From Actinomycetota bacterium (GTDB taxonomy: Bacteria; Actinomycetota; Humimicrobiia; Humimicrobiales; Humimicrobiaceae), in assembly GCA_028717265.1 (NCBI GenBank), contig JAQUOE010000001.1, forward strand, positions 16,963 through 80,962: a stretch of DNA of 64,000 nucleotides. Reading direction: 5' to 3'. The number at the start of each line of letters is the position of its first letter. Within the stretch, counting starts at the first letter, position 1. Shown in pieces: positions 5,496 through 55,764 of the stretch. Position numbers and translations under genes: made by a program. The notes beneath the pieces were generated by a model. It saw nothing but the letters and a program-made list of their open reading frames with translations. It searched no databases and was not told where the DNA came from.

Positions 5496-6524
5496 ATGAA
5501 ACTATTTAAGTTACTTCTAATATCTTTAATGGTGCTGGCAATTTTTATTACTCCTGTTGGATGCACAAAAAAATCAGAAGAAGCAGAAGAAGAAGCAGTA
5601 GTAGAAACGGAAGAGGAAGTGGAAGCGGAAGAGTCTACTGAAAAACCGGGATCAGCTGAAGAAGAAATTACTGAAGAATCCACTGAGGTAACCGGAGAAG
5701 AAGGCAATGGTGCGGGAAATAACGGAAATTTTGGAAAAGCAACCCTGAGTGGAGACTGGGTTTATTACCAGAACAGTTATGATGAAGAAAGTATTTACAA
5801 AATTAAGACAGACAGCAGTGGAAAGGAAAAGATATGTGACGGTTTTTCCGATTATATCAACGTAGTGGGAGACTGGATCTATTACCGGAGTACAAACGCC
5901 TGGATCTCTAAAATCAAAACAGACGGAAGCGGGCAGGAAGTTATAAGTCGTGACGAAACCGATTTTGTCACTGCAGTGGGAGATTGGGTTTATTATGTAA
6001 ACTATTATATTTATAGAATCAGGACAGACGGCAGCGGGCTTGAAAAGATAAATGATGATGATTCCGGTGAATTCAGTGTAGCGGGGGATTGGATTTATTA
6101 CAACAATGATAGTGATAATGATAGAATTTATAAAATTAAAACAGACGGCAGCGGGCGCAATAAGTTAAATGATGACGTGTCTTACTATGTCAATGTGGTA
6201 GGAGACTGGATATATTATTCAATCCCTGAAGCTGATGCCGCAGGGATTTATAAAATTAAAACTGACGGAAGCGGGAAGGAAAAGATAATTGATGACCCTT
6301 CATATTGTATCAACATTTTGGGAGACTGGATTTATTATGGAAACTTTGATGATAACGCTAAGATTTATAGAATTAGAACAGACGGCAGTGGGAAAGAAAA
6401 AATAAATGATGATATGTCTCTTTTTATCAATGTAGCAGGTGATTGGATTTATTACGACAATCTGGATGACCTTAAGGCTTATAGAATTAGAACAGACGGC
6501 AGTGAGCGGCAGCCGGCAGATTAA
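5496..6524 (+). CDS. secreted lipoprotein with seven DUF5050-like tandem repeats
   Basis: It has a signal peptide and lipobox (LAIFITPVGC), then a Glu-rich acidic linker. Seven repeats of about 44 aa follow, each of the form GDW[IV]YY...IY[KR]I[KR]TDGSG[KQ]EKI. The DUF5050 family name is from memory. Confidence 0.6.
   Translation: MKLFKLLLISLMVLAIFITPVGCTKKSEEAEEEAVVETEEEVEAEESTEKPGSAEEEITEESTEVTGEEGNGAGNNGNFGKATLSGDWVYYQNSYDEESIYKIKTDSSGKEKICDGFSDYINVVGDWIYYRSTNAWISKIKTDGSGQEVISRDETDFVTAVGDWVYYVNYYIYRIRTDGSGLEKINDDDSGEFSVAGDWIYYNNDSDNDRIYKIKTDGSGRNKLNDDVSYYVNVVGDWIYYSIPEADAAGIYKIKTDGSGKEKIIDDPSYCINILGDWIYYGNFDDNAKIYRIRTDGSGKEKINDDMSLFINVAGDWIYYDNLDDLKAYRIRTDGSERQPAD
5745..6524 (+). repeat. 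seven tandem ~130-bp coding repeats inside the lipoprotein gene
   Basis: The recurring GDWIYY / YKIKTDGSG peptide blocks are mirrored by recurring gagactggatttattat and aaaattaaaacagacggcagcgg DNA blocks. Confidence 0.7.
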
Positions 6525-6673
6525 CAGATTAATCAGAAATGTTTAAGAGCTATAATTAAATAGTTACGGAAAAGGAGCGATCTGATTAGTTTGAATTTGA
6601 CAGGGAGACTGCTAAAAATTTTAAAATAAAAAATGAAAAAGAGCTATTAGAATTTCTTAAAAGCAGAAATTAG

Positions 6674-6844
6674 TCTTCCATACTGAAGTTAGTTCTTGAT
6701 TCAAATATATATTTTTCCGCTCTTTTATTTGCTGGAATTCCCTATATGCAAAACTCCAAAACGAGTTTTCGAAAGGAGATAAAAAAGCTCTTAAAAATCT
6801 GTTTTCAGCGAATGGCCCATTCGAAACGCTTTCTTCTAAATTAG
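6674..6844 (+). pseudogene. PIN-domain (TIGR00305-like) toxin N-terminal fragment, no start and truncated
   Basis: The frame gives ILKLVLDSNIYFSALLFAGIP, which resembles the M-K-V-V-L-D-T-N-V-L-I-S-A-L-L PIN N-terminus. There is no canonical start, and the ORF stops after about 57 codons, whereas a PIN domain is about 130 aa. Confidence 0.25.
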
Positions 6845-7300
6845 ATCTTGCTTTTTGCGCCGGTTGGATAGATTCGGATGTTTATCATGATATTCGGATC
6901 ATAAAAAACTGAGGAATCATCGTGCCCATTCAATTGAAAATATTTCATCCAATGAAGAAAGAATAAGAAATGAGATTGGAAAATTTTTAGTACCTGAACG
7001 TAAGTTTTATGATCGGGGAAAACAATGGGCGGCTTCTGCTGCTAAAGGTAAGATAATAATTTCAACAGGTAAAAAACCTGAGGATTTAAAAGAAAATTTA
7101 TATACTCCGGGTAGTTTAACATTAGGCATAGCGCTTCCGATAATATTCACAGTTCCGATCAGTAATTTAAAACCCCTCTTCTGTATGAAGAATGATAATA
7201 AGGATAATATCTTTGCAATAGATATTCCTGATTACATGAAAAAACTGATAGAAAAAACATCTGATAAAAGATTGAGATTACTTCTTTATAATAAAAAATA
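6700..7300 (+). pseudogene. HEPN / MtlR-YggD-like protein gene disrupted by frameshifts
   Basis: Frame 1 reads ...LFSANGPFETLSSKLDLAFCAGWIDSDVYHDIRIIKN and then hits a stop at an A6 run (6903-6908). Adding one A continues the reading as ...IRIIKKLRNHRAHSIEN..., an Rx4-6H HEPN motif, with about 130 further codons to the stop at about 7300. There is no canonical start in the upstream frame, and none of this appears in the ORF track. Confidence 0.35.
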
Positions 7301-7560
7301 GTTTAATCGCAAAACGAATAGTATGAAGATTTAAAATTAATATTTATTTATTACTTAAAAACCAATCTTCAGATTAGCTGCATCAAATCCTATAACATAT
7401 ATCCTGAAGACTGAGATATTTTTCTTATGCCAGAGTCAAATCCGAATACATCAGGAATTTTCCTTTAAATATTGTTAATAATAAAAATATGCAATATGGG
7501 TTCAGTGAAAATCCCTTCTGATAAATAATCATCATGCTGATATTTTTTATATAATTAATT

Positions 7561-7610
7561 TCATTTACAATGAAAACATTATATGATATTATTTCATTAT
7601 AAATGAAAAC
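7561..7610 (+). promoter_or_regulatory. 17-nt direct repeat pair, 15 of 17 matching, 15 nt upstream of the AAA ATPase gene
   Basis: TCATTTACAATGAAAAC (7561-7577) and TCATTATAAATGAAAAC (7594-7610) lie in an AT-rich intergenic region just before the start at 7626. Confidence 0.25.
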
Positions 7611-7625
7611 TTTGGAAATAATTGA

Positions 7626-8897
7626 ATGGAAAAAACAACGTTAAAAACTCTGGTGCTGGAACAAAGAGAAAATATCATAGCGAAAGATAAGGGATTAAAA
7701 AGGGATTCATTATCTGAAGTAGCACCCAATCTTAAACTTCCGCATTGCCTGATCATTGCAGGAATCAGGCGTGTGGGCAAATCCACTCTTCTATTGCAGA
7801 TAATCGATTCTTATTTTGGAGAAGATTTTTATTATTTCAATTTTGAAGATGAAAGACTTGTCAATTTCAATATAGAGGATTTCAATCTGCTCTATGAAGT
7901 GATGATCGAGTTCTACGGCGAAAAAAAGACTTTCTTTTTTGACGAAATCCAGAACATCAAAGGCTGGGAAACGTTTGTGCGGAGAATGATGGATAAAAAT
8001 TATAAATTCGTCCTGACCGGTTCAAATGCTACGCTCCTTAGTCGGGAATTGGGCACGAAATTAACGGGAAGATATATCCTTTCAACTTTGTATCCGTTTT
8101 CATTCAAAGAGTTTTTAAAATTCAAAGAATATTCATTGGATAAAAAGGATCTTCTTATTACAGAAAAAAAGGTAAAGATTAAGAAACAATTCGATGAATA
8201 TTTGAAACGCGGCGGTATGCCCGAATATTTAAAATATAATTTCAATACGGAAATACTTCAGAGATTGTATGAAGACATTATTTACAGGGATATAGCAGCC
8301 AGGTATGGGATAAAAGATATGAAAACTTTAAGGGAACTGGCCCTTTATTATCTTACCAATATTACAGGTGAAATATCATATAATAAACTTAAGAATACTT
8401 ATAAAACAGGCAGCGTCAATACAATAAAAAACTATACCGAATATTTGGAGAACAGTTTTTTAGTGGATATCTTAAATATTTTTTCGTATTCCATTAAGCA
8501 ACAAGCTATTGCGCCCAAGAAAGTATTCTGTATAGATAATGGCATAGCGGATTGTATTTCTTTTGCATTTTCGGATAATATGGGAAGATATCTTGAGAAT
8601 CTTGTGTATATCGAGTTAAAAAGAAGAGGTGAAACTCTCTATTATTACAGGACAAAAAACAACAACACGGTTGATTTTGCAGTAAAGAGAGGTAATAAAA
8701 TAAGTGAAATCATTCAGGTATGTTTTGATATTGGAAATGAGAAAACCAGAGAAAGAGAGATTAAAAGTTTGGATCAGGCAATGGAAGAGCTGGAACTCAA
8801 TGAAGGCTTGATTATAACATATGAAAATGAAGAAATAATAAAAATGAATGGTAAATCAATAAAAATAATGCCCGCGTATAAATGGCTGATTGTATAA
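7626..8897 (+). CDS. AAA+ ATPase of the AAA_14 / DUF4143 family
   Basis: Contains the Walker A motif GIRRVGKSTLL and a Walker B-like FFFDEIQ. Its length of 423 aa and its C-terminal region are typical of the widespread 'predicted ATPase (AAA+ superfamily)' orphans. Confidence 0.7.
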   Translation: MEKTTLKTLVLEQRENIIAKDKGLKRDSLSEVAPNLKLPHCLIIAGIRRVGKSTLLLQIIDSYFGEDFYYFNFEDERLVNFNIEDFNLLYEVMIEFYGEKKTFFFDEIQNIKGWETFVRRMMDKNYKFVLTGSNATLLSRELGTKLTGRYILSTLYPFSFKEFLKFKEYSLDKKDLLITEKKVKIKKQFDEYLKRGGMPEYLKYNFNTEILQRLYEDIIYRDIAARYGIKDMKTLRELALYYLTNITGEISYNKLKNTYKTGSVNTIKNYTEYLENSFLVDILNIFSYSIKQQAIAPKKVFCIDNGIADCISFAFSDNMGRYLENLVYIELKRRGETLYYYRTKNNNTVDFAVKRGNKISEIIQVCFDIGNEKTREREIKSLDQAMEELELNEGLIITYENEEIIKMNGKSIKIMPAYKWLIV

Positions 8898-8962: not shown

Positions 8963-9868
8963 ATGCCGGATTTGGAAGAAAAAAAAGAAATTAAAGATCT
9001 GATTATAAGTATCGTAAGCTATAACAGTTTGAATTATTTAAGGGAATGCCTGGATTCCATATTGAAAAATCCTCCCGGATTGGATTATGAGATAATAGTT
9101 ATCGACAATGCCTCCGGTGACGGTACCGTGGAATCAGTAAAAAAGGATTATCCCGGAGTGACCCTGATACCCGGTAATAAGAATGTAGGATTCGCTGCGG
9201 CAAATAACAGAGCCATCGAAAAATCTGATTCAAAGTACATCGTTCTTCTTAATAGTGACTGTATGGTATATAAAAAATCTCTGGACAACCTTGTAGATTT
9301 CATGAATAAACATCCGGGTGCAGGAATAACGGGACCGAAAATAGTAAACAGTGACGGAACCATTCAGTTATCCTGCAGAAGGTTTCCTTCTCTTATGAAT
9401 GCTGCAGCTCATACCATACTGGCCGATATATTCCCCGGCAATCCTTTTTCAAAAAAATACAAACTTGCGGATATCGGCAGGGATGATCCCTCAAAAGTGG
9501 ACTGGGTTTCAGGGTCCTGTATGATAATAAGGAGAGAGGCCCTGGAGGATACCGGAACTCTTGATGAAAGATATTTTATGTATGTAGAGGACCTGGATAT
9601 TTGTTACAGAATGTGGCAGAAAAACTGGGAGGTATATTACAATCCGGAAGCCAAAATAATGCATCATATTGCAGGAAGCAGCGGGCGCGGAAAAATAAAG
9701 TCGAGTTTCAGGATGCAGAGGAGTGTGTTTTATTTTTTCTGGAAAAATTACAGGAAAGATTGGAGAATTATTTTAATACCGCTTCTGATTCTGGCGCTTG
9801 GATTCAGATTGTTTCTTTCTATCATTAAAAGTTGCTTCTCTAAGAAAAATAATATATATAAATCGTAG
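8963..9868 (+). CDS. family 2 glycosyltransferase with a C-terminal TM segment
   Basis: Shows the GT-A fold motifs VIDNASGDGT and YVEDLDICYR (DxD-like), plus a C-terminal hydrophobic helix. Confidence 0.75.
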   Translation: MPDLEEKKEIKDLIISIVSYNSLNYLRECLDSILKNPPGLDYEIIVIDNASGDGTVESVKKDYPGVTLIPGNKNVGFAAANNRAIEKSDSKYIVLLNSDCMVYKKSLDNLVDFMNKHPGAGITGPKIVNSDGTIQLSCRRFPSLMNAAAHTILADIFPGNPFSKKYKLADIGRDDPSKVDWVSGSCMIIRREALEDTGTLDERYFMYVEDLDICYRMWQKNWEVYYNPEAKIMHHIAGSSGRGKIKSSFRMQRSVFYFFWKNYRKDWRIILIPLLILALGFRLFLSIIKSCFSKKNNIYKS

Positions 9869-9991
9869 TTAAAAAGGTTGTATTGGTCCGTTTTTAAAAA
9901 TTTTAAAGAGATTAGAAAAGTTTGGTTTTTTAAATTTAGGATTTTATATTAAAATAATCACAATTAGAAAAGTGCTCCGGGAGAATAAAAT

Positions 9992-10951
9992 ATTTTAAGA
10001 ATTTTAATAACAGGTATTGCCGGATTTGCCGGCAGACATCTTACCTCTTATCTCGCTGGGAAAGATAATAACAAAATTTTGGGAACAGACCTGACTGTAA
10101 AAAATTTTAATCTGGATGATTCTACCGGCGAAATAGAATTTGAAGAAGCGGATATCACCCATAGAGAGAAAATTTTCAGTATAATCAAGAAATTCAAACC
10201 TGATCAGGTATACCATCTTGCCGCTCAAAGCTCTGTAAGTCATTCCTGGGAAGATCCGGTAGAGACCTTCAGAATCAATGTTTTCGGGGGAATAAATATT
10301 TTAGAGGGCCTAAAGATTTTTTGCCCGGAATGCAGGATTCTTATGGCATGCACTGCCGAAGAATACGGAGAAACAGATATTCCGGATAAGCCGGTAGATG
10401 AACAATTCAGGATCTTTCCCCAGAATCCATATGCCATAAGTAAATCGGCCCTGGATTTTTTATCCTCTGTTTATTATGGTGCATACAAACTTCCGGTCTT
10501 TATAAGCAGGGCATTCAATCATATCGGTCCGGGTCAGTCCGAAAGATTTGTATGTTCGGATTTCGCAAGGCAAATAGCCCTTACGGAAAGCGGCAAACAG
10601 GAACCGGAAATATGGGTCGGGAATATACAATCAGAGAGAGATTTTCTGGATGTAAGGGATGCAGTGAAAGCATACTATTTTATAATAAACAAAGGCCGCC
10701 CGGGCCAGGTTTATAACGTCTGTTCGGGAAGGAAATTGAAGATTTCGGATTTACTTGATATGCTCATATCTTTCAGTAAAAGATCGGACATTAAAGTGAA
10801 GATCGACCGGAAGAAATTAAGGGCAATCGATGTCAAATCGATGTACGGAGATAATAGTAAATTAAAAAACCATACCGGATGGATTCCCGGTTATTCCATC
10901 GAAACATCACTAAAGGATACGCTTGATTACTGGAGAGGAAAAACCGGTTAA
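9992..10951 (+). CDS. NAD-dependent epimerase/dehydratase, GDP-6-deoxy-D-mannose reductase (Rmd)-like, with a probable ATT start
   Basis: The Rossmann motif ILITGIAGFAGRHL is encoded at 9995-10040. That is upstream of the first canonical start, TTG at 10079, where the ORF track begins. There is an in-frame stop at 9986, a GGGAGA Shine-Dalgarno at 9979-9984, and ATT at 9992. Downstream motifs are HLAAQSSVSHSWEDP and YAISK (YxxxK). The resemblance to Rmd/Gmd is from memory. Confidence 0.55.
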   Translation: MLRILITGIAGFAGRHLTSYLAGKDNNKILGTDLTVKNFNLDDSTGEIEFEEADITHREKIFSIIKKFKPDQVYHLAAQSSVSHSWEDPVETFRINVFGGINILEGLKIFCPECRILMACTAEEYGETDIPDKPVDEQFRIFPQNPYAISKSALDFLSSVYYGAYKLPVFISRAFNHIGPGQSERFVCSDFARQIALTESGKQEPEIWVGNIQSERDFLDVRDAVKAYYFIINKGRPGQVYNVCSGRKLKISDLLDMLISFSKRSDIKVKIDRKKLRAIDVKSMYGDNSKLKNHTGWIPGYSIETSLKDTLDYWRGKTG

Positions 10952-10983: not shown

Positions 10984-12099
10984 TTGAAAGCAGTAATATT
11001 AGCCGGCGGGGAGGGAACAAGATTGCGCCCGATTACCTATTTGAACCCAAAACCGATGCTTCCCCTGGTAAACAGGCCCTTTATGGAAAAATTTGTTTTA
11101 TGGATCAAATCCCATAAGATCGAAGATATAATTTTTTCCACTGGCTATCTTCAGGGGATTTTTAAAAGCTATTTTGGAGACGGAAGCAGATATAAAATGA
11201 AGTTTATCTATGTACAGGAAAAGGAACCCCTGGATACCTGCGGAGGCGTAAAGAATGTGGAGAAATATCTGGATGGTAATAGTTTCATGGTATTTAACGG
11301 TGATATTCTTTCTTCAATCGATCTGACCGAAATGGCAGCCTTTCATAAGAGAAAAAGAGCGGATATAACAATATCGCTTACCAGAGTCGAAAACCCTGAA
11401 TCTTATGGTCTGGTGCCTGTTGATAAAGAAAGCAGAGTGATGCAGTTTCTCGAGAAACCTGAACGTGGTGAAGCCACCACTGATTTGATTAATGCCGGAA
11501 TATATATCATAGAGCCAGATATTATGGGACTGGTACCAAAAGGTAAAAGGTACTCTTTCGAGAGAGATCTTTTTCCCGATGTTCTGGATAAGGGATATAA
11601 AGTTTTTGGTTATGTTTCCGATGAATACTGGCTCGATGTCGGGACACCCCGGAAATATCTAATGGCGCACTGGGATGTTTTATATAAAAAGATAAATTTT
11701 AAATTCCCTTATAAAGAAGTTATGGAAAATATATATATAGGGGAAGATACAGAGTATTCAAAAAATAATTTCGTTTCAGGGCCGGTTGTTATAGGGGAAA
11801 AGACAAGAATGGAAAGCAGCGTAAAGATAATGCCCCTTACGGTAATAGGTGATGATTGTCGTATATCCGGAGGAACAGAAATATCAGAAAGCATAATTTT
11901 TGGCAGCTGCAAAATAGGTGAAAAATGCCTGATAAAAAGGGCAATAATTTCAAATAATGTAAAAATCGATGACAATGTGATAATAGAGGACTATGCCGTT
12001 ATCGGAGATAACAGCAAAATTGGGAAAAATAATATATTGAAAAACGGCGTAAAGATTGGTATAAATTCTAACATTGCACCGGGGCAGATTTCTTTTTAA
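10984..12099 (+). CDS. sugar-1-phosphate nucleotidyltransferase (mannose-1-P guanylyltransferase-like) with a C-terminal left-handed beta-helix
   Basis: TTG start. Has GGEGTRLRPIT (the NTP_transferase G-x-G-T-R) and C-terminal hexapeptide repeats (IGDNSKIGKNNILKNGVKIG). It lies in the GDP-sugar cluster. Confidence 0.65.
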   Translation: MKAVILAGGEGTRLRPITYLNPKPMLPLVNRPFMEKFVLWIKSHKIEDIIFSTGYLQGIFKSYFGDGSRYKMKFIYVQEKEPLDTCGGVKNVEKYLDGNSFMVFNGDILSSIDLTEMAAFHKRKRADITISLTRVENPESYGLVPVDKESRVMQFLEKPERGEATTDLINAGIYIIEPDIMGLVPKGKRYSFERDLFPDVLDKGYKVFGYVSDEYWLDVGTPRKYLMAHWDVLYKKINFKFPYKEVMENIYIGEDTEYSKNNFVSGPVVIGEKTRMESSVKIMPLTVIGDDCRISGGTEISESIIFGSCKIGEKCLIKRAIISNNVKIDDNVIIEDYAVIGDNSKIGKNNILKNGVKIGINSNIAPGQISF

Positions 12100-12156: not shown

Positions 12157-13122
12157 ATGACCAGAGCACTGGTAACCGGAATTACCGGTCAGGATGGTTC
12201 CTACCTGGCGGAGTTTTTATTGGAGAAGAAATATGAAGTCTATGGAATGGTAAGGCGCTCATCTGTAGAGAATTTCAATAGAATAGAACATATAAGGAAC
12301 AAGCTGAAGTTTGTCCAGGCAGATCTGCTGGATCAGTTGTCCATAATAGATGCAATAAAAGAATCCTGTCCCGATGAGATATATAATCTTGGCGCCATGT
12401 CGTTTGTGCCAACATCCTGGAAGCAGCCTGTCCTGACAGGCGAGTTTACCGGATTGGGAGTGACAAGGATGCTGGAGGCGACACGGCATATGAATAAAAA
12501 TATCAAGTTCTATCAGGCATCCAGTTCTGAAATGTTCGGGAAAGTAAAAGAAGTTCCCCAGAATGAGAATACCCCTTTTTATCCCAGAAGTCCTTACGGG
12601 GTAGCAAAAGTCTATGGCCATTACATGACCGTAAACTACAGGGAAAGTTATGATATGTTTACCTGCAGTGGTATACTTTTTAACCACGAATCACCAAGAC
12701 GGGGTCTTGAATTTGTTACTAAAAAGATAACTTACGGGGCGGCTAAAATAAAACTTGGATTGACTGATAACCTGTGTCTTGGAAATCTGGACGCAAAAAG
12801 AGACTGGGGGTATGCTCTGGATTATATCGAAGCAATGTGGCTGATGCTTCAACAGGATAAACCGGAAGATTATGTCATAAGCACCGGAGAGGCACATTCT
12901 GTAAGAGATTGGGTCGAGGCTTCTTTCCGGTGTCTGGATCTTGACTGGGAGAAATTTGTAAAAATCGATAAAAGATTCATCAGGCCGGCTGATGTGGAAC
13001 TTCTGGTAGGAGATTGTTCCAAAGCCAAAGAAAAACTTGGCTGGAAGCCGAAAGTGGGCTTTGAAGAGCTGGTAAAGATAATGGTTGAATTTGATTACAA
13101 TCATTTAAAAAAACAAATGTAA
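12157..13122 (+). CDS. gmd: GDP-mannose 4,6-dehydratase
   Basis: The N-terminus [32 protein letters not shown] is nearly identical in pattern to canonical Gmd. 321 aa. Confidence 0.9.
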
Positions 13123-13151: not shown

Positions 13152-14597
13152 ATGAAAGAAACCGCTATAAAATTCGGAACCGATGGCTGGAGAGGTATAA
13201 TAGCTGACGAGTTTACTTTCGACGGAGTAAGAATCGTTACGCAGGGTGTCAGTAATTATCTACGTAAAAAAGTGAAAAAAGAAGCCGAACCATGCGTGGT
13301 GCTGGGATATGATACAAGATTCCTTTCCGATAAATTTGCCGGTGTCTCGGCAGAGGTATTTGCGCGCAATGGTATCAGAGTTTATTTTTCCGACAGGATT
13401 ATAACTTCACCAATCCTTTCTCATGCCGTGCTCGAAAAAAAGGCCGACCTGGGTATTATGATCACTGCCAGCCATAATCCTTATTACTATAATGGTTATA
13501 AAATCAAAGGGCCATTCGGCGGTTCCGCTACCATGGATATAATAAGTGAAGTCGAAAAAGAAGTCAGCGAAGTGTCGGAAAATGTCGAACGTTACAGGGA
13601 ATTTTTATATCCTGGAAGCAAAAAAGATGATACTGTCAAAAAAGCGGATTTTTTATCAAGTTACCGGCAAAATATCCTCGGTCAGGTAGACAGGGAGATT
13701 GTAGAAGGTTTTAATTTCGGACTGCTTCTTGAGCCCATGTATGGTGCGGCTCAGGGCATGTTTAAAGATATCCTTGAGACATTTAACCCCATGAATCTTT
13801 TTGAGATGCATTCTATTTTAAATCCGGGATTCGGAGGTATAAATCCGGAACCTATCGGAGACAATCTGGCTGAAGCCAAACGAACCCTCAGGGAGAAAAA
13901 ATACAAGATGGCAATTTGTCTGGATGGTGACGGTGACAGGATCGCGGCTCTGGGTGAGGAAGGCAATTACATAAGCTCCCATCATCTTTATGCCATAGTT
14001 TTATGGTATCTCGCCAGTATAAAAAAAATGAAAGGCAAAGTGATAAAATCAGTCAATCTATCTTCAATAGTGGATAAAATATGCGCCAGATATGATCTGG
14101 AACTTATCACTACTCCCGTGGGATTTAAATATATAGCGGAGCAAATAATAAAAGGCGGAGTCATTATGGGTGGTGAAGAAAGCGGGGGTTTATGGGCAGG
14201 AGGAAATTTGCCGGAAAGAGACGGCATGCTTATGGGCCTGAGACTTCTGGAAATTGTGTGCAGTACGGAAAAGACCATAAACCGGATTCTCGAAGAAATT
14301 TATAATGAATTCGGATATTTTGTTTTTAACAGGATCGACTATAAAATTGGTCCGGAACAAAAGGCAAATTTAAAATCTCTTCTGGAGAGAGGTATCCCCG
14401 ATATTCTTAAGAAAGCAGGTGCCGGAAAAGTCATCACTATAGATGGTTACAAATATATTATGGAGGACAATAGCTGGATAATGATCAGGCCATCCGGAAC
14501 CGAATCGGTGGTAAGGGTATATACGGAAGGTGAAAGCGATAAAAAGATAAAACATCTACAGGAGCTGGGTAAGGAAGTCATAGACAGTGTTTTTTAA
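13152..14597 (+). CDS. phosphomannomutase/phosphoglucomutase (alpha-D-phosphohexomutase)
   Basis: Contains FGTDGWRG, the TASHNP active-serine motif and the GDGDR metal-binding loop. Confidence 0.75.
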   Translation: MKETAIKFGTDGWRGIIADEFTFDGVRIVTQGVSNYLRKKVKKEAEPCVVLGYDTRFLSDKFAGVSAEVFARNGIRVYFSDRIITSPILSHAVLEKKADLGIMITASHNPYYYNGYKIKGPFGGSATMDIISEVEKEVSEVSENVERYREFLYPGSKKDDTVKKADFLSSYRQNILGQVDREIVEGFNFGLLLEPMYGAAQGMFKDILETFNPMNLFEMHSILNPGFGGINPEPIGDNLAEAKRTLREKKYKMAICLDGDGDRIAALGEEGNYISSHHLYAIVLWYLASIKKMKGKVIKSVNLSSIVDKICARYDLELITTPVGFKYIAEQIIKGGVIMGGEESGGLWAGGNLPERDGMLMGLRLLEIVCSTEKTINRILEEIYNEFGYFVFNRIDYKIGPEQKANLKSLLERGIPDILKKAGAGKVITIDGYKYIMEDNSWIMIRPSGTESVVRVYTEGESDKKIKHLQELGKEVIDSVF

Positions 14598-23405: not shown

Positions 23406-24510
23406 ATGTTAGAGGATTATGATACGAAATTGGATAAATTACTGAAAAAACTCGTTTTTTTAAGGGACTGTCTTTGAAATAGATAATAAAATAAAGAGTC
23501 TTAAGGACCTTGAGAGCAGGGCTCTATCAGAAAAATTCTGGGAAGATCACGATAAAGCCCAGAAGATAATCCGGGAGATTTCGGAGCTTAAAGAAACAAT
23601 TGCTGATATTAAAAATTTAGAGGAAAAAGTAGAGGATAGCAGATTAGCATTGGAAATACTTAAAAGCGAGGAAGACGGAAGTCTTGAAAAAGAGCTGGCA
23701 GAAAATCTTACCGACATAGAGGGTTCACTTAATGGTCTGGAAGAAAAAGTAATTTTAAGCGGCAAATATGACTCCTATCCTTCGGTAATAAATATTCACC
23801 CCGGAGCGGGCGGGACAGAATCACAGGATTGGGCGGAGATGCTGTTCCGGATGTATACACGCTGGATCGATAAAAGAGGGTTTTCTTATATTGTCAATGA
23901 CTATCAGGCAGGTGAAGAGGCGGGTATAAAGAATATTACTTTTACAGTTACCGGGAGAAATGCATACGGACTTTTAAAATCGGAAAAAGGGATCCATAGA
24001 CTGGTAAGGATCTCACCCTTTGATTCTTCCAAAAGAAGGCATACTTCTTTTGCATCTGTTGACGTGATACCGTTTTTCGATAAAGATATAGATATAAAAA
24101 TTAATAAAGAAGATCTAAAAATCGAGACCTTCAAATCGAGCAGTGCAGGTGGCCAGCATGTAAATGTCACCGATTCAGCAGTGAGGATCACGCATCTTCC
24201 CACCAATATTGTGGTGCAGTGCCAGAATGAAAGATCACAGACGCTGAACAAGCAGACAGCCATACAGATTTTGAAATCAAAGCTTTTCGAGCTGGAGAGG
24301 AAGAAAAATATCGAAGAAATAGATAAAGTAAGAGGAGAAAAAAAAGAAATCGGATGGGGCAATCAAATAAGAAGTTATACTCTTCAACCTTACCAGCTGA
24401 TCAAGGACCACAGAACCGGAATCGAGATAGGAGATGTAGGTTCGGTACTGGATGGTAATATAGATATGCTTATCAGAGGTTTTCTTGAAAAAAAATTATA
24501 CAAAGCGTAA
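23406..24510 (+). CDS. prfB: peptide chain release factor 2, needing a programmed +1 frameshift at CTT TGA (23472-23477)
   Basis: Frame 0 reads MLEDYDTKLDKLLKKLVFLRDCL then TGA. The +1 frame continues as EIDNKIKSLKDLE... and carries the SPF and GGQ motifs. AAGGGA lies 5 nt upstream of the slip site. Confidence 0.85.
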
Positions 24511-29196: not shown

Positions 29197-29549
29197 GGGG
29201 GCGACCTGGATTCGACGGGGACAGGTTGAGCTTAAATTGCAAGCCGAGTATCAGAACTCGTAAATAACTGAAAATAAACATAAAAGCTAATAATAATAAA
29301 TTAGCATTAGCAGCCTAATTTAAGCTGCTACGTCTGTGAAAGGTTTCCTGCGCTTTTCAACAGGCGCCGGTTAGCAGGATACTCCGGTATGATATGTCTG
29401 CGGTAGTACCGGAGGAAATTTAAAGCGGGCTGGCTTTTTTGATCGTGTCCATGCGAGCAAAAAAGTGAGACTTAAAATGTGGAATAAGCTTGTAGGCGTT
29501 TAAGTGTCAATGTCTTCGGACGCGGGTTCGATTCCCGCCGCCTCCACCA
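29197..29549 (+). ncRNA. ssrA: tmRNA (SsrA)
   Basis: It lies directly downstream of smpB. The 5' GGGGGCGACCTGGATTCGACGGGG pairs with the 3' ...GGACGCGGGTTCGATTCCCGCCGCCTCCACCA, giving a tRNA-Ala-like acceptor, T-arm and CCA. The internal tag ORF is GCT AAT AAT AAT AAA TTA GCA TTA GCA GCC TAA, encoding ANNNKLALAA. Confidence 0.85.
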
Positions 29550-34132: not shown

Positions 34133-34211
34133 CGGGGTGTAGCGCAGTTTGGTTTAGCGCACCTGCTTTGGGAGCAGGGGGTCGGAGGTTCAAATCCTCT
34201 CACCCCGACCA
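34133..34211 (+). tRNA. tRNA-Pro (anticodon TGG), CCA encoded
   Basis: Cloverleaf with acceptor CGGGGTG/CACCCCG, anticodon loop TTTGGGA and T-loop TTCAAAT. Confidence 0.85.
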
Positions 34212-34217
34212 TTTCGG

Positions 34218-34293
34218 GCGGGAATAGCTCAGTTGGCTAGAGCGTCAGCCTTCCAAGCTGAAGGTCGCGGGTTCGAGGCCCGTTTCCCGCTCC
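34218..34293 (+). tRNA. tRNA-Gly (anticodon TCC), CCA encoded
   Basis: Acceptor GCGGGAA/TTCCCGC, anticodon loop CTTCCAA, T-loop TTCGAGG. Confidence 0.85.
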
Positions 34294-34334
34294 ATTTTTT
34301 AGTAATGAATTTTAATTTGTTATAATATTTGCGT

Positions 34335-34411
34335 GCGCCAGTAGCTCAGCTGGATAGAGCAACGGATTTCTAATCCGTGGGTCGGGGGTTCAAATCCCTC
34401 CTGGCGTACCA
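34335..34411 (+). tRNA. tRNA-Arg (anticodon TCT), CCA encoded
   Basis: Acceptor GCGCCAG/CTGGCGT with G1-U72, anticodon stem ACGGA/TCCGT, loop TTTCTAA. Confidence 0.85.
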
Positions 34412-34419
34412 GAAATTTG

Positions 34420-34478
34420 GGTATCGCATTATAAATTCAGGTAGCGTACCATAAAGTTGGTATTGGCTGTATAATTTT
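34420..34478 (+). repeat. three tandem imperfect ~19-20-nt repeats in the tRNA-Arg/tRNA-His spacer
   Basis: GGTATCGCATTATAAATTC, GGTAGCGTACCATAAAGTT and GGTATTGGCTGTATAATTTT share the GGTA...C...ATAAA pattern. Confidence 0.35.
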
Positions 34479-34490
34479 AATTAAACATAT

Positions 34491-34567
34491 GGTGAGAATA
34501 GCTCAGCTGGGAGAGCACAGGATTGTGGATCCTGGGGTCGCGGGTTCGATCCCCGTTTCTCACCCCA
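34491..34567 (+). tRNA. tRNA-His (anticodon GTG) with encoded G-1, CCA encoded
   Basis: An extra 5' G precedes the GTGAGAA/TTCTCAC acceptor, and the discriminator is C. Anticodon loop TTGTGGA. Confidence 0.85.
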
Positions 34568-34580
34568 TTTTTTAAACCTT

Positions 34581-34657
34581 GCGCCTGTAGCTCAGTTGGA
34601 TAGAGCGTCGGACTTCGAATCCGTGCGTCGGGGGTTCGAATCCCTCCAGGCGTACCA
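34581..34657 (+). tRNA. tRNA-Arg (anticodon TCG), CCA encoded
   Basis: Acceptor GCGCCTG/CAGGCGT, anticodon loop CTTCGAA. Confidence 0.8.
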
Positions 34658-34666
34658 TATTTAAAT

Positions 34667-34742
34667 GGGCCGTTAGCTCAGCTGGTAGAGCACCTGACTC
34701 TTAATCAGGGTGTCACAGGTTCGATCCCTGTACGGCTCACCA
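34667..34742 (+). tRNA. tRNA-Lys (anticodon CTT), CCA encoded
   Basis: Acceptor GGGCCGT/ACGGCTC, anticodon stem CCTGA/TCAGG, loop CTCTTAA. Confidence 0.85.
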
Positions 34743-34747
34743 TCTCT

Positions 34748-34834
34748 GCGAGAGTGGCGGAACTGGCAGACGCGCTAGACTTAGGATCTAGTGGGGTAAC
34801 ACCTATAGGGGTTCAAGTCCCCTCTCTCGCACCA
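34748..34834 (+). tRNA. tRNA-Leu (anticodon TAG), long variable arm, CCA encoded
   Basis: Acceptor GCGAGAG/CTCTCGC, anticodon loop CTTAGGA, extra arm TGGGGTAACACCTATA. 87 nt. Confidence 0.85.
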
Positions 34835-50375: not shown

Positions 50376-51572
50376 ATGATAAGAAGAAGAAAAAGTCTCA
50401 GGGATTTTGCCAGTTTCGATAGGGAGAAGAGAAAGATCCGGTTTGATTTTATACTATTTTTCCTGGTTCTTGCTATCTCTTCATGGGGGGTCCTGGTGAT
50501 TTACAGCGCAACCAGAGAGACCCTGCCCGGAGGAGTATCGGATCCAGGGTATTATATGAAAAGACAATTGATCTGGCTGGGAGCAGGGATCATTATATTT
50601 ATTGTAATTCAATTTATAAATTACAGGAAAATCCAGAGATACTGGTGGCTGATTCTGGCCCTGGGGATCTTTTCGCTTGTAGCCGTGCTTCTTTTTGGCT
50701 ATGAGGTTCACGGATCGAAAAGCTGGATAGATTTGAGATTCACTACCATTCAACCCTCGGAATTTTCAAAGATTTTTATGGTAATAGTTTTATCCGCCAT
50801 CATGTCAAAATGGAGAAGTGAAAAGGTATCCAATGTTACTTTCAGGAAAGTTGTAATTGCATCATTTGCGGCACTCACATTTGTTGTACTGGTTTTACTG
50901 GAACCTGATTACGGGACCGCCCTTATATACTTTATAGTATTTATTGGTTTATTATTCATATCCGGGGCTAATTTTCTGTATATCCTCTCAATACTGGGAC
51001 TTACGGCCGGAGGATTTTTTCTTGCTCTGAATGCCGGCTTCATAAAGCAATATCAGCTGGACAGGATTCTTGTTTTTCTAAAACCGGATGTGTCATCAAT
51101 GGAAGGTGCCGGGTATAATTTATATCAGTCCAAACTGGCGATTGGTTCCGGCGGACTGTTAGGCAAGGGTCTTTTCCTGGGAAGGCAGACAAATCTGAGT
51201 TATGTTCCGGAGCACCATACCGATTTTATATTTTCCGTTATCGGAGAAGAAGTGGGATTCATAGGGGCAATTCTGGTAATATTAATACTCGGAATAATTA
51301 TCTGGAGGTGCTTCTATATAGCTTCGAATTCTTCCGATACCTTTGCAATGCTGCTTGCTTCGGGAATAGGTTTTATTATTTTATCTCAGGTAGTTATAAA
51401 TATAGGCATGACCATAGGTATTATGCCAATCATAGGAATTCCTCTGCCTTTCTTGAGTTCCGGCGGCTCCAGCCTCATAAGTATGTTTCTGGGTGTTGCA
51501 CTTGTGGAAAATGTGTTTATATGGAGGGAAGTAAGAAAAAGTCATGTGATCGCTTATCAGGAGTTCAAATAA
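50376..51572 (+). CDS. rodA: peptidoglycan glycosyltransferase RodA (SEDS family)
   Basis: About 10 TM helices of FtsW/RodA/SpoVE type, directly after mrdA. Confidence 0.85.
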   Translation: MIRRRKSLRDFASFDREKRKIRFDFILFFLVLAISSWGVLVIYSATRETLPGGVSDPGYYMKRQLIWLGAGIIIFIVIQFINYRKIQRYWWLILALGIFSLVAVLLFGYEVHGSKSWIDLRFTTIQPSEFSKIFMVIVLSAIMSKWRSEKVSNVTFRKVVIASFAALTFVVLVLLEPDYGTALIYFIVFIGLLFISGANFLYILSILGLTAGGFFLALNAGFIKQYQLDRILVFLKPDVSSMEGAGYNLYQSKLAIGSGGLLGKGLFLGRQTNLSYVPEHHTDFIFSVIGEEVGFIGAILVILILGIIIWRCFYIASNSSDTFAMLLASGIGFIILSQVVINIGMTIGIMPIIGIPLPFLSSGGSSLISMFLGVALVENVFIWREVRKSHVIAYQEFK

Positions 51573-51589
51573 TCTCCGGGGAGTCAAAT

Positions 51590-53374
51590 ATGGATAAAAT
51601 CAAAAGGCTGGATTCTGATCTGCTTGGAAGGCTCTTAAAAGATATTGAAAAACCGGGCAGGTATATAAATAACGAAATAGGAACCAAAAGTAAAAGTCCG
51701 GGGACAATGGAAGATTTTCAGGATTTAATCCTTATGGCCCTTGTGTTTCCGGATATATATGAAGTCGGCATGTCTAATCTGGGTCTCCAGATCCTGTATG
51801 AAATTATAAATAAACATAAGTGTTTTTCGGCGGAAAGAGTTTTTTCTCCATGGATAGATTTTGAAGAGAAGCTCAGAAAAGAGAAAGTAAAAATCTTTTC
51901 ACTTGAAAACCGGATATTTCTGGACTCTTTTGATTTGATTGGTTTTACGGTCCAGCACGAATTCTTATATACAAATATACTGAATATACTCGATATGGGC
52001 GGTATAGGCATAAGGGCCGTAGACAGGAGAAATAGATTTCCTCTTGTGTGTGCCGGAGGACCTGCGATTGTCAATCCTCAGCCGCTTTCAAGATTCATGG
52101 ATTTTTTTGTTATCGGGGACGGGGAAGAAGTTGTCATTTCCATTTTGCAGAGAGTTAAAAAATACAGGGAGAACAATAAAGATAAAAACTGGTTCCTGAA
52201 AGAAATCAGCAGGCTCGATGGGATATATATTCCCGGGTTCTATAGATTCTATTATTATCCGGATGGGCGGATCAAGAGCATAGAACCGGGGGAAAAGGTA
52301 AAAAAAGCAGTAATAAAAAACCTTAATGAATTTCAGATAGTCCAGGATCCAATAATACCTAATATTAAAACGGTACATGATAGATTTGCAGTAGAGATTA
52401 TGAGGGGATGCAGCAGGGGCTGCAGGTTCTGTCAGGCAGGTATTATCTACAGACCGGTGCGAAAGAGGGAAGTCGGCTCTCTCGTCAGGCAGTGTATTGC
52501 CGGACTAAAAAAAACGGGTTATGACGAAATTTCATTTTTGTCGCTGTCTTCCTCGGACTATGGTGAAATAGGGCATTTATTGGATAAAATCACGGACCCT
52601 TCAAAACACGGCCGACTTTCGATTTCAATGCCTTCTATGAGACTTGATAGTCTCAATTTGAAGTTATTCGAGCTTATTCAGAGCGGAAGAAAAACAGGAC
52701 TCACTTTTGCTCCCGAAGCAGGCAGCCAGAGAATGAGGAATATAATCAATAAAAATATAGAGGAAAAAGAAATGCTCGACTGCATAAAAATGGCTTTCAG
52801 CAGCGGTTGGGACAAAATCAAGCTTTATTTTATGATCGGCTTGCCGTATGAGAACGATAAAGATATCCATGAGATAACATTACTTGTGGAAAAGATAATA
52901 ATGGCGGCCAGAGAAAGGCTTTCAGGGAAAAAACTTGCCAGACTGAAAATCAACATCAGTATAAATGTATTTTGTCCCAAACCTTTTACACCCTTCCAGT
53001 GGGTGTCCCATGACAATCCGGGGAATCTTGATAGTAAGTTTGATTATATTTTAAAAAATGTATCCAAAAGGTATGTGAATATAAATTGGACCGATTCTAA
53101 AAAAAGCAGGATAGAATGCGCGTTAGCCAGGGGCAATGAAAGGGTAGGCGAGGTTATAGAGAGTGCATGGAAAAAAGGGGCCAGATTTGATAACTGGACG
53201 GATTTTTTCAAATTATCTGTCTGGGAGGAAGAATTCGTAAAAGCCGGCCTGGATATTGATCTTTTTACCAGAAAGTTTTCGGTAGATGAAATATTGCCCT
53301 GGGATATCATTGATATAGGAGTAAGTAAGGATTTTTTATTAAAAGAATATGACAGAGCAAGAGAATGTTTGTGA
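51590..53374 (+). CDS. radical SAM protein with an N-terminal B12-binding-like domain (TIGR03960-like)
   Basis: ATG at 51590 with a GGGGAG Shine-Dalgarno, just after the rodA stop. The N-terminus is MDKIKRLDSDLLGRLLKDIEKPGRYINNE and the cluster motif is CSRGCRFC. The ORF track's earlier start at 51308 overlaps rodA and is rejected. Confidence 0.7.
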   Translation: MDKIKRLDSDLLGRLLKDIEKPGRYINNEIGTKSKSPGTMEDFQDLILMALVFPDIYEVGMSNLGLQILYEIINKHKCFSAERVFSPWIDFEEKLRKEKVKIFSLENRIFLDSFDLIGFTVQHEFLYTNILNILDMGGIGIRAVDRRNRFPLVCAGGPAIVNPQPLSRFMDFFVIGDGEEVVISILQRVKKYRENNKDKNWFLKEISRLDGIYIPGFYRFYYYPDGRIKSIEPGEKVKKAVIKNLNEFQIVQDPIIPNIKTVHDRFAVEIMRGCSRGCRFCQAGIIYRPVRKREVGSLVRQCIAGLKKTGYDEISFLSLSSSDYGEIGHLLDKITDPSKHGRLSISMPSMRLDSLNLKLFELIQSGRKTGLTFAPEAGSQRMRNIINKNIEEKEMLDCIKMAFSSGWDKIKLYFMIGLPYENDKDIHEITLLVEKIIMAARERLSGKKLARLKINISINVFCPKPFTPFQWVSHDNPGNLDSKFDYILKNVSKRYVNINWTDSKKSRIECALARGNERVGEVIESAWKKGARFDNWTDFFKLSVWEEEFVKAGLDIDLFTRKFSVDEILPWDIIDIGVSKDFLLKEYDRARECL

Positions 53375-54059: not shown

Positions 54060-54090
54060 ATTCTTAGAGTAAAGGAGATCTGAGATTAAA

Positions 54091-55764
54091 TTGGATAAAG
54101 AAATGTTAGTAAGTTCGGATAAAAATGAAACCCGGATTGCTATTTTAGAATCAAAAAAGGTTACCCAGCTTTTTTTTGACCGCAAGAATAAAAAATCTCT
54201 TGTTGGAAACATATATATGGGCAGGGTTAAAAATATTCTTCCGGGACTGGATGCGGCTTTCGTTGATATAGAAGAGGATAAAAATGCTTTCCTGTATATC
54301 AATGAAGTCGGTCCGGATATGGATGATGAAAATGCTGCGGAGATACCAAAGAAAATACAATATGTTCTTAAGCCAAATCAAATAGTATTGGTCCAGGTAA
54401 CCAAGGATCCCATGAAGACAAAGGGTGCCAGGATAACTACTTATATATCTATTCCTGGCAGATATCTTGTCCTGGCACCCTTTAATAAGGGCATTGGAAT
54501 CTCCAGGAAAGTCTACGGAGAAGAAAGAGAGAATTTAAAAAAGATTGCAGCAGAAATAAAAAGTGAAGATTACGGATTAATTGTCAGGACCGCGGCCAGG
54601 GAAGCAGATAAAAACAAACTAAAAAAAGATTTAAAGCAGCTTTTAAAAAAATGGAATTTTATAAAGAAAAAAGCTTCTGCTTTAAATAAGCCCGGTATCG
54701 TTTTTAATGAATATTCAGTGATTTTAAAGTTGATGAGAGATGTATTTTCTGAGGAGTTTAGCACCATACATGTAGATAAGAAAGTGCTTAAAAGAGAAAT
54801 TGGCCGGTACCTGTACTCTGTCGGGATCAAATTCAACAATATAATAGTCCATCATGGGAAAGAAGATTTGTTTGAAGCCTTTAATGTCAACGAGGTTATA
54901 GAAGGTGCCCTCGAAAGGAAAGTCTGGCTAAAATCCGGAGGATTCATAGTAATAGATCATGGAGAGGCAATGACCACAATAGATGTCAATACCGGTAAAT
55001 ATACTTCAAATAAAAGTTCATCCCAGACCATACTGAGAACGAACCTGGAAGCAGCGGAAACAATTACCAATCAATTAAGGCTGCGGGATATCGGTGGTAT
55101 CATAGTGATAGATTTTATCGATATGGCCAGTGAGAAAGACAGAAAGAAGGTTTATAGCAGATTTTTACAGTGCCTTGAAAATGACAGGACCAAAACTGAA
55201 ATACTTCAATTTTCAAAATTGGGTCTGCTGGAAATGACAAGAAAAAATGTCTCGGACGGGATCCTTGACACGATGTGTAAAATCTGTCCCTGCTGCGGCG
55301 GTTCCGGCCATATAAAATCTGAGGAAACAATAAGACTTGAAACGGAGAGAAAGATCAGAAGACTTGCAAGAGAAAGCAAGTCAAAAGGTTTCTTAATAAA
55401 ATTGAATACAAATATAGCGGCGCTTGTAATCGGTACAGACGGCAGAAATTTAAAACATCTTGAGAACATAACAAAAAAATATATCAATATTCAGGGCGAT
55501 TCAAAATTACCGGTCGATACTTTTATAATATCAGCAGAGGGTTCGATTGCTGAAATAAAAGAAGCTTCCAAACCATTTAAAACCGGTGATATTCTTGATT
55601 TACTGGCAGAAGAACAGTATTTTCATAATAAAAATGATGCTATATCAAGAGTTGACGGATATATTGTGCAGATAATCGATGGAGGAAAATATATTGGCCA
55701 GAGACTCAGGGTAGAGATTAAGTCCGTATCCAAGACCAGTGCAGTAGCGGAAATCAGGAATTAA
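54091..55764 (+). CDS. rng: ribonuclease G/E family endoribonuclease
   Basis: Has an S1 domain (GNIYMGRVKNILPGLDAAFVDI), the catalytic region and a Zn-link CPCCGGSG. 557 aa. The start is TTG at 54091 or ATG at 54103. Confidence 0.8.
   Translation: MDKEMLVSSDKNETRIAILESKKVTQLFFDRKNKKSLVGNIYMGRVKNILPGLDAAFVDIEEDKNAFLYINEVGPDMDDENAAEIPKKIQYVLKPNQIVLVQVTKDPMKTKGARITTYISIPGRYLVLAPFNKGIGISRKVYGEERENLKKIAAEIKSEDYGLIVRTAAREADKNKLKKDLKQLLKKWNFIKKKASALNKPGIVFNEYSVILKLMRDVFSEEFSTIHVDKKVLKREIGRYLYSVGIKFNNIIVHHGKEDLFEAFNVNEVIEGALERKVWLKSGGFIVIDHGEAMTTIDVNTGKYTSNKSSSQTILRTNLEAAETITNQLRLRDIGGIIVIDFIDMASEKDRKKVYSRFLQCLENDRTKTEILQFSKLGLLEMTRKNVSDGILDTMCKICPCCGGSGHIKSEETIRLETERKIRRLARESKSKGFLIKLNTNIAALVIGTDGRNLKHLENITKKYINIQGDSKLPVDTFIISAEGSIAEIKEASKPFKTGDILDLLAEEQYFHNKNDAISRVDGYIVQIIDGGKYIGQRLRVEIKSVSKTSAVAEIRN

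Follow-up and report, generated by a model that had tools for sequence, protein, structure and literature searches.

Translation of the rmd gene in a 64,000-nucleotide (nt) stretch of DNA from an Actinomycetota bacterium of the family Humimicrobiaceae (GenBank assembly GCA_028717265.1, contig JAQUOE010000001.1, positions 16,963 to 80,962 of the forward strand; the whole stretch is hereafter called the window) probably starts at an AUU codon at position 9992. This codon follows a GGGAGA Shine-Dalgarno (SD) sequence in an unstructured, A/U-rich leader. The gene encodes GDP-4-dehydro-6-deoxy-D-mannose reductase (Rmd). It lacks a canonical start codon, the layout of its start region is conserved among relatives, its N-terminal codons are under purifying selection, and its identity is clear.

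Start region of rmd

Window positions 9800-10300 were read and the gene frame was translated. The original prediction, made from the letters of the window, had described a GGGAGA at 9979, an in-frame TAA at 9986, an ATT at 9992 and a glycine-rich motif before TTG 10079; all of these coordinates matched exactly and were base-exact on re-reading. The elements lie on the plus strand. The SD sequence GGGAGA occupies 9979-9984 and is followed by 7 nt (ATAAAAT), after which comes the proposed start codon ATT (9992-9994), invariant in the clade and favoured by its SD spacing, which the initiator tRNA would read as formylmethionine (fMet). The TAA at 9986-9988 closes the frame upstream.

The frame consists of TAA 9986, AAT 9989, ATT 9992, TTA 9995, AGA 9998, ATT 10001, TTA 10004, and ATA 10007, and continues ACA GGT ATT GCC GGA TTT GCC GGC. 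Its translation from ATT 9992 reads I-L-R-I-L-I-T-G-I-A-G-F-A-G-R-H-L, with an asparagine codon and then the stop immediately upstream. The TGxxGxxG NAD(P)-binding motif (10010-10033, residues T7-G14, TGIAGFAG) aligns with LITGVAGFVGKYL of the Rmd structure 2pk3, and a motif scan places GxxGxxG at residue 8. The first canonical start triplet is TTG at 10079-10081, which here is an internal leucine codon (K-I-L-G) and not a start. Both the frame reading and a scan of the open reading frames (ORFs) of the window revealed no in-frame ATG, GTG or TTG between TAA 9986 and TTG 10079, just as had been claimed. Two further in-frame near-cognate triplets, ATT 10001-10003 and ATA 10007-10009, precede the glycine-rich motif; the original prediction had not mentioned them.

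Conservation of the start layout among relatives

Relatives were obtained by protein search, their DNA was fetched from genomes, metagenomes and specific contigs, and the start regions were compared codon by codon. The ATT layout is found in eleven lineages (window/L001, L012, L002/L013, L003/L014, L015, L005/L016, L004, L006/L017, L028/L029, L030, and L032); L001 may share the sample of the window and was not counted as independent. These lineages are sequence-distinct and separately assembled, with 79-100% amino-acid identity, and they come from different metagenomes and metagenome-assembled genomes. Their shared layout is (C)CGGGAGAA TAA ATT ATT (TTA|AAA|ATA) (AGA|AAA) ATT TT(A|G) ATA ACA GG, the exceptions being small SD variants in L028 and L030 and, in the window, AAT instead of the first ATT.

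The counterpart of ATT 9992 is unchanged in 11 of 11 lineages, preceded by AAT, ATT or ATC and followed by TTA, AAA or ATA (Leu, Lys or Ile). A stop codon (TAA or TGA) stands at the 9986 position in ten of the eleven, with CGA in L028. The GGAG core of the SD sequence is present in all ten clade loci measured, is also visible in L032, and lies 6-8 nt before the ATT. Furthermore, in the ten clade loci tabulated, and likewise in L032, the interval from the upstream stop to the ATT contains no in-frame canonical triplet. The lengths of the annotated proteins follow the same division: relatives with at least 79% identity are nearly all 'short', with 272-301 amino acids (aa), or with 314-315 aa beginning MTG or MITG, and those with at most 78% identity have 318-333 aa beginning (M/L)-(R/K)-I-L-I-T-G.

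Coding character of the upstream codons

The codons upstream of TTG 10079 belong to the conserved domain of the protein. Position 1 of both the Epimerase and the GDP_Man_Dehyd profiles of Pfam aligns to residues 4-5, numbered from ATT 9992, and a product from TTG 10079 would enter these profiles only at position 40-50. Moreover, the native Met-Arg-Ala-Leu-Ile-Thr-Gly of 2PK3 Rmd aligns to codons 2-8 of the window gene. A check of orthologues, which had been suggested as a possible refutation, disclosed none without the Rossmann segment; the full-length relatives keep their R/K-I-L-I-T-G beginning, and the methionine of 2PK3 falls on codon 2.

Selection was measured by pairwise Nei-Gojobori ratios of nonsynonymous to synonymous substitution (dN/dS) across ten lineages, with dS of 0.2-1.8. 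The 28 codons from ATT 9992 to TTG 10079 give dN/dS values of mostly 0.1-0.3 (range 0.03-0.68), compared with 0.06-0.18 for the remaining gene and about 0.1 for the whole gene. Purifying selection thus acts on this segment as on the remainder of the gene; the segment is therefore translated. At the position of TTG 10079, each of the nine other clade lineages examined has CTG or CTT, so that the TTG is not a conserved start, and the first in-frame canonical triplet among relatives lies anywhere from codon 5 to codon 72.

Evolution of the start site

The outgroup loci (L031, L033, L007/18/23, L008/11/19/20, L009/21, and L010) share the arrangement GGGAG, 6 nt, (C|T)TT, and then TTG (AGR|AAA) ATT. 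In all of them, the codon corresponding to TTA 9995 of the window is a canonical TTG start. In a neighbour-joining protein tree, all ATT-type loci group in one clade, which lies within the TTG-type loci. Accordingly, the ancestral start would have been a UUG at the position now occupied by TTA 9995, and the ATT arrangement would be derived.

The leader of the outgroups reads GGGAGAA-AATTCTTTTGAGG, whereas that of the clade reads GGGAGAA-TA-AATTATTTTAAGA. The clade leader differs by a 2-nt insertion that creates the in-frame TAA, and by CTT>ATT and TTG>TTA. The GGAG core lies 8-9 nt from TTG in outgroups and 6-8 nt from ATT in the clade, and the old start position (the TTA 9995 equivalent) is now 9-11 nt from it. 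The SD-to-start geometry is thus preserved for the ATT and not for the old codon. These changes may be placed in the common ancestor of the Humimicrobiaceae/Hydromicrobium-like clade, in which TTG would have become TTA, the preceding CTT would have become ATT, and the two nucleotides TA would have been inserted after the SD sequence. The insertion would have given rise to the in-frame TAA and, for the new ATT codon, re-established the spacing from SD sequence to start.

Choice among the candidate start codons

Of the original proposal that rmd starts at ATT 9992, the non-canonical nature of the start is supported; the preference for this codon over ATT 10001 and ATA 10007 is drawn from SD spacing and is not proven. 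The GGAG core lies 8 nt from ATT 9992, 17 nt from ATT 10001, and 23 nt from ATA 10007, and in the SD-bearing genes of the window GGAG stands mostly 3-11 nt before the start. ATT 9992 is favoured because of this spacing. Initiation there would give the product fMet-L-R-I-L-I-T-G-I-A-G-F-A-G, one residue longer than the orthologues.

Several considerations weigh against this assignment. The spacing rules come from other (model) bacteria and from only 16 SD-bearing genes of the window. Within the clade, none of the codons ATT 9992, ATT 10001, and ATA 10007 varies, and therefore conservation alone does not single out ATT 9992. Among the columns of invariant isoleucine, 7 of 18 are codon-invariant, three of these being the start candidates, and 11 of the other 15 vary in codon. 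This pattern points to nucleotide-level constraint on the first six codons, or on the entire initiation region, and favours none of the three candidates over the others. Additionally, the NCBI protein MDD5621556.1 (P0001, 314 aa, MTGIAGFAG) uses ATA 10007; the NCBI pipeline has already annotated a non-canonical rmd start, at a different codon. By analogy with Escherichia coli, in which AUU is a poor initiator, expression of rmd would be weak unless the initiation factor 3 (IF3) or the ribosome of this lineage is more permissive. Finally, the neighbour-joining tree that underlies the evolutionary account is of a single gene and is without bootstrap support.

The strongest competitor, itself improbable, is a start at the second in-frame AUU, ATT 10001, with the product M-L-I-T-G-I-A-G. 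This codon is invariant in every locus including the outgroups, position 1 of the Pfam Epimerase profile aligns exactly there, and the product would retain most of strand beta-1 and the whole glycine motif. However, in outgroups the codon encodes the isoleucine of R-I-L-I-T-G downstream of the canonical TTG, and coding explains its invariance. Its distance from the GGAG core is outside the bulk of the spacings in the window, and a start there leaves unexplained the 2-nt insertion that moved the SD sequence away.

A start at ATA 10007, as in the record MDD5621556.1, is somewhat less credible still. It has the standing of a deposited annotation, ATA is allowed in translation table 11 and is codon-invariant in the clade, and the GxxGxxG motif would be retained. 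However, besides being the farthest of the three from the SD core, this start deletes the Rossmann strand beta-1 (I-L-I), which is retained in every orthologue and in 2PK3, and its equivalent in outgroup L007 is GTA, an ordinary valine codon.

That the gene is truncated or decaying, with a start at TTG 10079 (290 aa, as given by Prodigal-type callers) or as a pseudogene, is very improbable and effectively refuted. Automatic callers do give clade members products of 290, 293, 272, 282, 301, and 286 aa. Nevertheless, the selection on the codons upstream of TTG 10079 and the CTG or CTT found at that position in relatives, with a first canonical triplet that wanders from codon to codon, stand against this explanation. 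The warning in the original prediction that a TTG 10079 start would remove the NAD(P)-binding fold is borne out by Pfam and by the 2pk3 alignment, since the 290-aa product is without beta-1, the glycine loop, and alpha-A. No frameshifts or stops were found in rmd, YxxxK is intact, and dN/dS over the whole gene remains low.

The least probable explanation by far, namely a sequencing or assembly error (ATG to ATT) or an indel that masks a frameshifted leader ORF or a canonical start further upstream, might be suggested by the origin of the window in a metagenome-assembled genome and by GTG 9972, which opens an 8-codon ORF in another frame, but it is refuted by comparative data, as the same ATT and SD sequence recur in eleven separately assembled lineages from different samples and assemblers despite pairwise dS of 0.2-1.8, and GTG 9972 is GTA or ATT in relatives, without an SD sequence. 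A leader ORF, a frameshift, and termination-reinitiation were also considered and rejected; GTG 9972 is unconserved, and there is no in-frame canonical triplet between the stop and the ATT.

Upstream block and leader RNA

A promoter-like block (TTGGTT, 17 nt, TATATT) lies at 9922-9961 on the plus strand; its proposed function is suggested by conservation. The 40-nt non-coding block, TTGGTTTTTTAAATTTAGGATTTTATATTAAAATAATCAC, contains the inverted repeat ATTTTA-N3-TAAAAT at 9941-9955 and has a single copy in the window. Across 15 aligned loci it hardly varies, even in the outgroups, whose protein identity is only 63-73%, and the coding sequences of the loci sharing it are saturated at synonymous sites. 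The match of a simple promoter scan overlaps the block at 9929-9958 and is not above shuffle expectation. The block probably drives rmd together with the downstream manC-gmd-manB, giving a short leader, and it is possibly also an operator.

The 5' region of rmd has no Rfam match to a riboswitch or other known RNA even at E <= 1, and its predicted fold is no better than those of shuffled sequences (z = -0.42). A riboswitch or other known RNA was rejected on these grounds. The region is open and A/U-rich, and the SD sequence and the ATT are not occluded.

Identity of the protein and gene neighbourhood

The rmd coding sequence spans 9992-10951 on the plus strand (319 codons plus stop) and is assigned to GDP-4-dehydro-6-deoxy-D-mannose reductase of the extended SDR family on the basis of Pfam, PDB, and homologue names. 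It matches the Pfam families GDP_Man_Dehyd (9.5e-68) and Epimerase (3.9e-49) over its full length. The closest PDB match is 2pk3 Rmd (E 6.8e-71), followed by 6x3b Rmd (1.6e-51), and Gmd structures score 1e-28 or weaker. The catalytic YxxxK (Y147-K151, YAISK; 10430-10444, plus strand), found by motif scan, aligns with YGVSK of 2pk3, and TGIAGFAG aligns with TGVAGFVG of the same protein. Several sources name the homologues GDP-6-deoxy-D-mannose reductase.

None of the NCBIfam equivalog models reaches its cut-off for the protein, and the Gmd model TIGR01472 gives 119.8 bits against a cut-off of 415. The assignment is based on best-match similarity and gene context, not on a curated family threshold. 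The NCBI record names the protein 'GDP-mannose 4,6-dehydratase'; the protein falls short of the Gmd cut-off, and the true gmd is at 12157-13122. On sequence grounds, gene 9992-10951 is an intact Rmd orthologue (EC 1.1.1.281) with predicted catalysis, and the label 'rmd-like' that it had received from its letters is supported by the best PDB match, the presence of YxxxK, and the neighbouring gmd, manC and manB.

Directly 3' of rmd are manC-like (10984-12099), gmd-like (12157-13122), PGM/PMM (manB/pgm, 13152-14597), and PGI (14656 onward) genes. The manC gene starts with TTG preceded by AGGAG, and gmd starts with ATG. The order rmd-manC-gmd-PGM/PMM-PGI marks a predicted cluster for GDP-D-rhamnose synthesis. 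The window gene resembles the Rmd (GDP-6-deoxy-D-lyxo-4-hexulose reductase) of Aneurinibacillus thermoaerophilus (2PK3) and of Pseudomonas aeruginosa (6X3B) in its full-length match, best to 2PK3, in the alignment of TGxxGxxG and YxxxK, and in its gmd/manC/manB/pgm context. Unlike the window rmd, the genes of 2PK3 and 6X3B start at AUG.

Other features of the window

A scan of about 57 long ORFs revealed no other gene of the window that needs a non-canonical start, with RNase G being ambiguous. In the region 54073-54095 (plus strand) of this RNase E/G gene, ATT 54085 stands 7 nt after AGGAG, and the first canonical triplet, TTG 54091, stands 13 nt after the GGAG core. ATT 54085 precedes the TTG by only two codons; it may be a second ATT start, and the case is ambiguous. 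Widespread use of ATT starts was rejected, as two other ORFs with long headroom before a canonical start are explained otherwise. The first is prfB, the gene of release factor 2 (23406-24510, plus strand), which shows the classical programmed +1 frameshift. Its leader of 23 codons begins with ATG 23406 and runs as far as CTT TGA (about 23471-23476), in front of which stands AGGGA, an SD-like sequence; the main PCRF/RF-1 frame then continues (ORF 23464-24510). The long stretch of prfB without a canonical start is due to this frameshift and might be taken in error for another non-canonical start. The second is the radical-SAM gene at 51119-53374, whose Pfam domains start only at residue 222 and whose upstream stretch has a non-coding look.

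The segment from trpA to the glycosyltransferase/rmd cluster (window 5496-8897) varies among relatives. In the window, it holds a 342-aa repeat-rich putative lipoprotein, an AAA_14/DUF4143 ATPase, and a 1.1-kb AT-rich stretch without a called gene (6525-7625). The same segment holds toxin-antitoxin pairs (MazE/PIN, RHH/PemK) in L028 (500-1950) and L030 (1340-1970), and nothing in L031 and L033. It looks like an insertion hotspot. The window also carries an ordinary tmRNA (29197-29549, plus strand; tag ANNNKLALAA) and an ordinary cluster of seven tRNA genes (Pro, Gly, Arg, His, Arg, Lys, and Leu; 34133-34834, plus strand).

Comparison with known AUU starts

AUU is the confirmed start codon of infC, encoding IF3, and of pcnB, encoding poly(A) polymerase, in E. 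coli. The infC AUU is known to be conserved among relatives. In the same manner, the rmd start region has an SD sequence at normal spacing followed by AUU, no canonical start available, and an AUU conserved among relatives. By analogy, the expected consequence for rmd would also be weak, IF3-discriminated initiation. Unlike infC and pcnB, rmd encodes an enzyme of cell-surface sugar-nucleotide metabolism, which is not known to be connected with the translation apparatus, and it offers no obvious autoregulatory logic. Moreover, the rmd AUU arose one codon upstream, with a 2-nt SD shift, and did not replace the old start in place.

In E. coli reporters, near-cognate codons reach roughly 1-2% of the initiation seen with AUG (bioRxiv 10.1101/063800), and IF3 is the factor that discriminates against them (PMC9723500). 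Switches to AUU are extremely rare. In a survey of 36 genome groups, they were seen for 1 of 61,358 AUG, 1 of 5,080 GUG, and 0 of 2,468 UUG ancestral starts (PMC5622118). In Listeria monocytogenes, ATG>ATA/ATT in rsbW and 39 conserved genes with clade-associated start-codon switches have been read as expression tuning (PMC13068326). Like these switches, the start-codon state of rmd is fixed in one clade and differs from that of sister clades. Unlike them, it persists over species- to genus-level divergence (dS up to >1), and the start has been relocated by one codon. AUU starts are a known rare class, of which rmd is a further example involving no new mechanism. The less common features of the rmd case are the long-term retention and the one-codon relocation of the start with a compensating SD shift.

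Proposed mechanism and significance

In the mechanism proposed for rmd, the 30S subunit would bind GGGAGA, and the initiator tRNA would pair with AUU by two Watson-Crick pairs and a third-position mismatch. The output of Rmd would then be expected to be low and potentially IF3-sensitive in comparison with that of the co-transcribed manC, gmd, and manB. A further and rather doubtful suggestion is that the AUU start is a selected throttle and not a tolerated defect; another possibility is that start-codon discrimination is relaxed throughout the lineage. A throttle kept by selection would fit the data because the SD-stop-AUU layout has been retained past a synonymous divergence of 1 in eleven lineages, together with the 2-nt insertion that restores the spacing. 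If this idea were true, weak, IF3-sensitive initiation would set the ratio of Rmd to Gmd and ManC within one transcript, and the synthesis of GDP-D-rhamnose, for cell-envelope glycan, might be coupled to the state of the translation machinery.

For annotation, gene callers restricted to ATG, GTG and TTG truncate Rmd by 4 to 71 residues in every clade member. The database lengths for the family (P0001-P0009, P0025) are 272, 282, 286, 290, 293, 301, 314, and 315 aa. For these uncultured Actinomycetota, the wrong N-termini are passed on to alignments of the family, predicted structures, and pathway calls. With a start at AUU 9992, rmd, a metabolic gene, would join the very few known bacterial genes with a conserved AUU start, and would also offer a clean and datable start-site move, in which UUG was lost and AUU was gained one codon upstream with a compensating 2-nt shift of the SD sequence. 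The main value of the finding lies in correcting an inconsistent N-terminal annotation and in providing a tidy evolutionary example.

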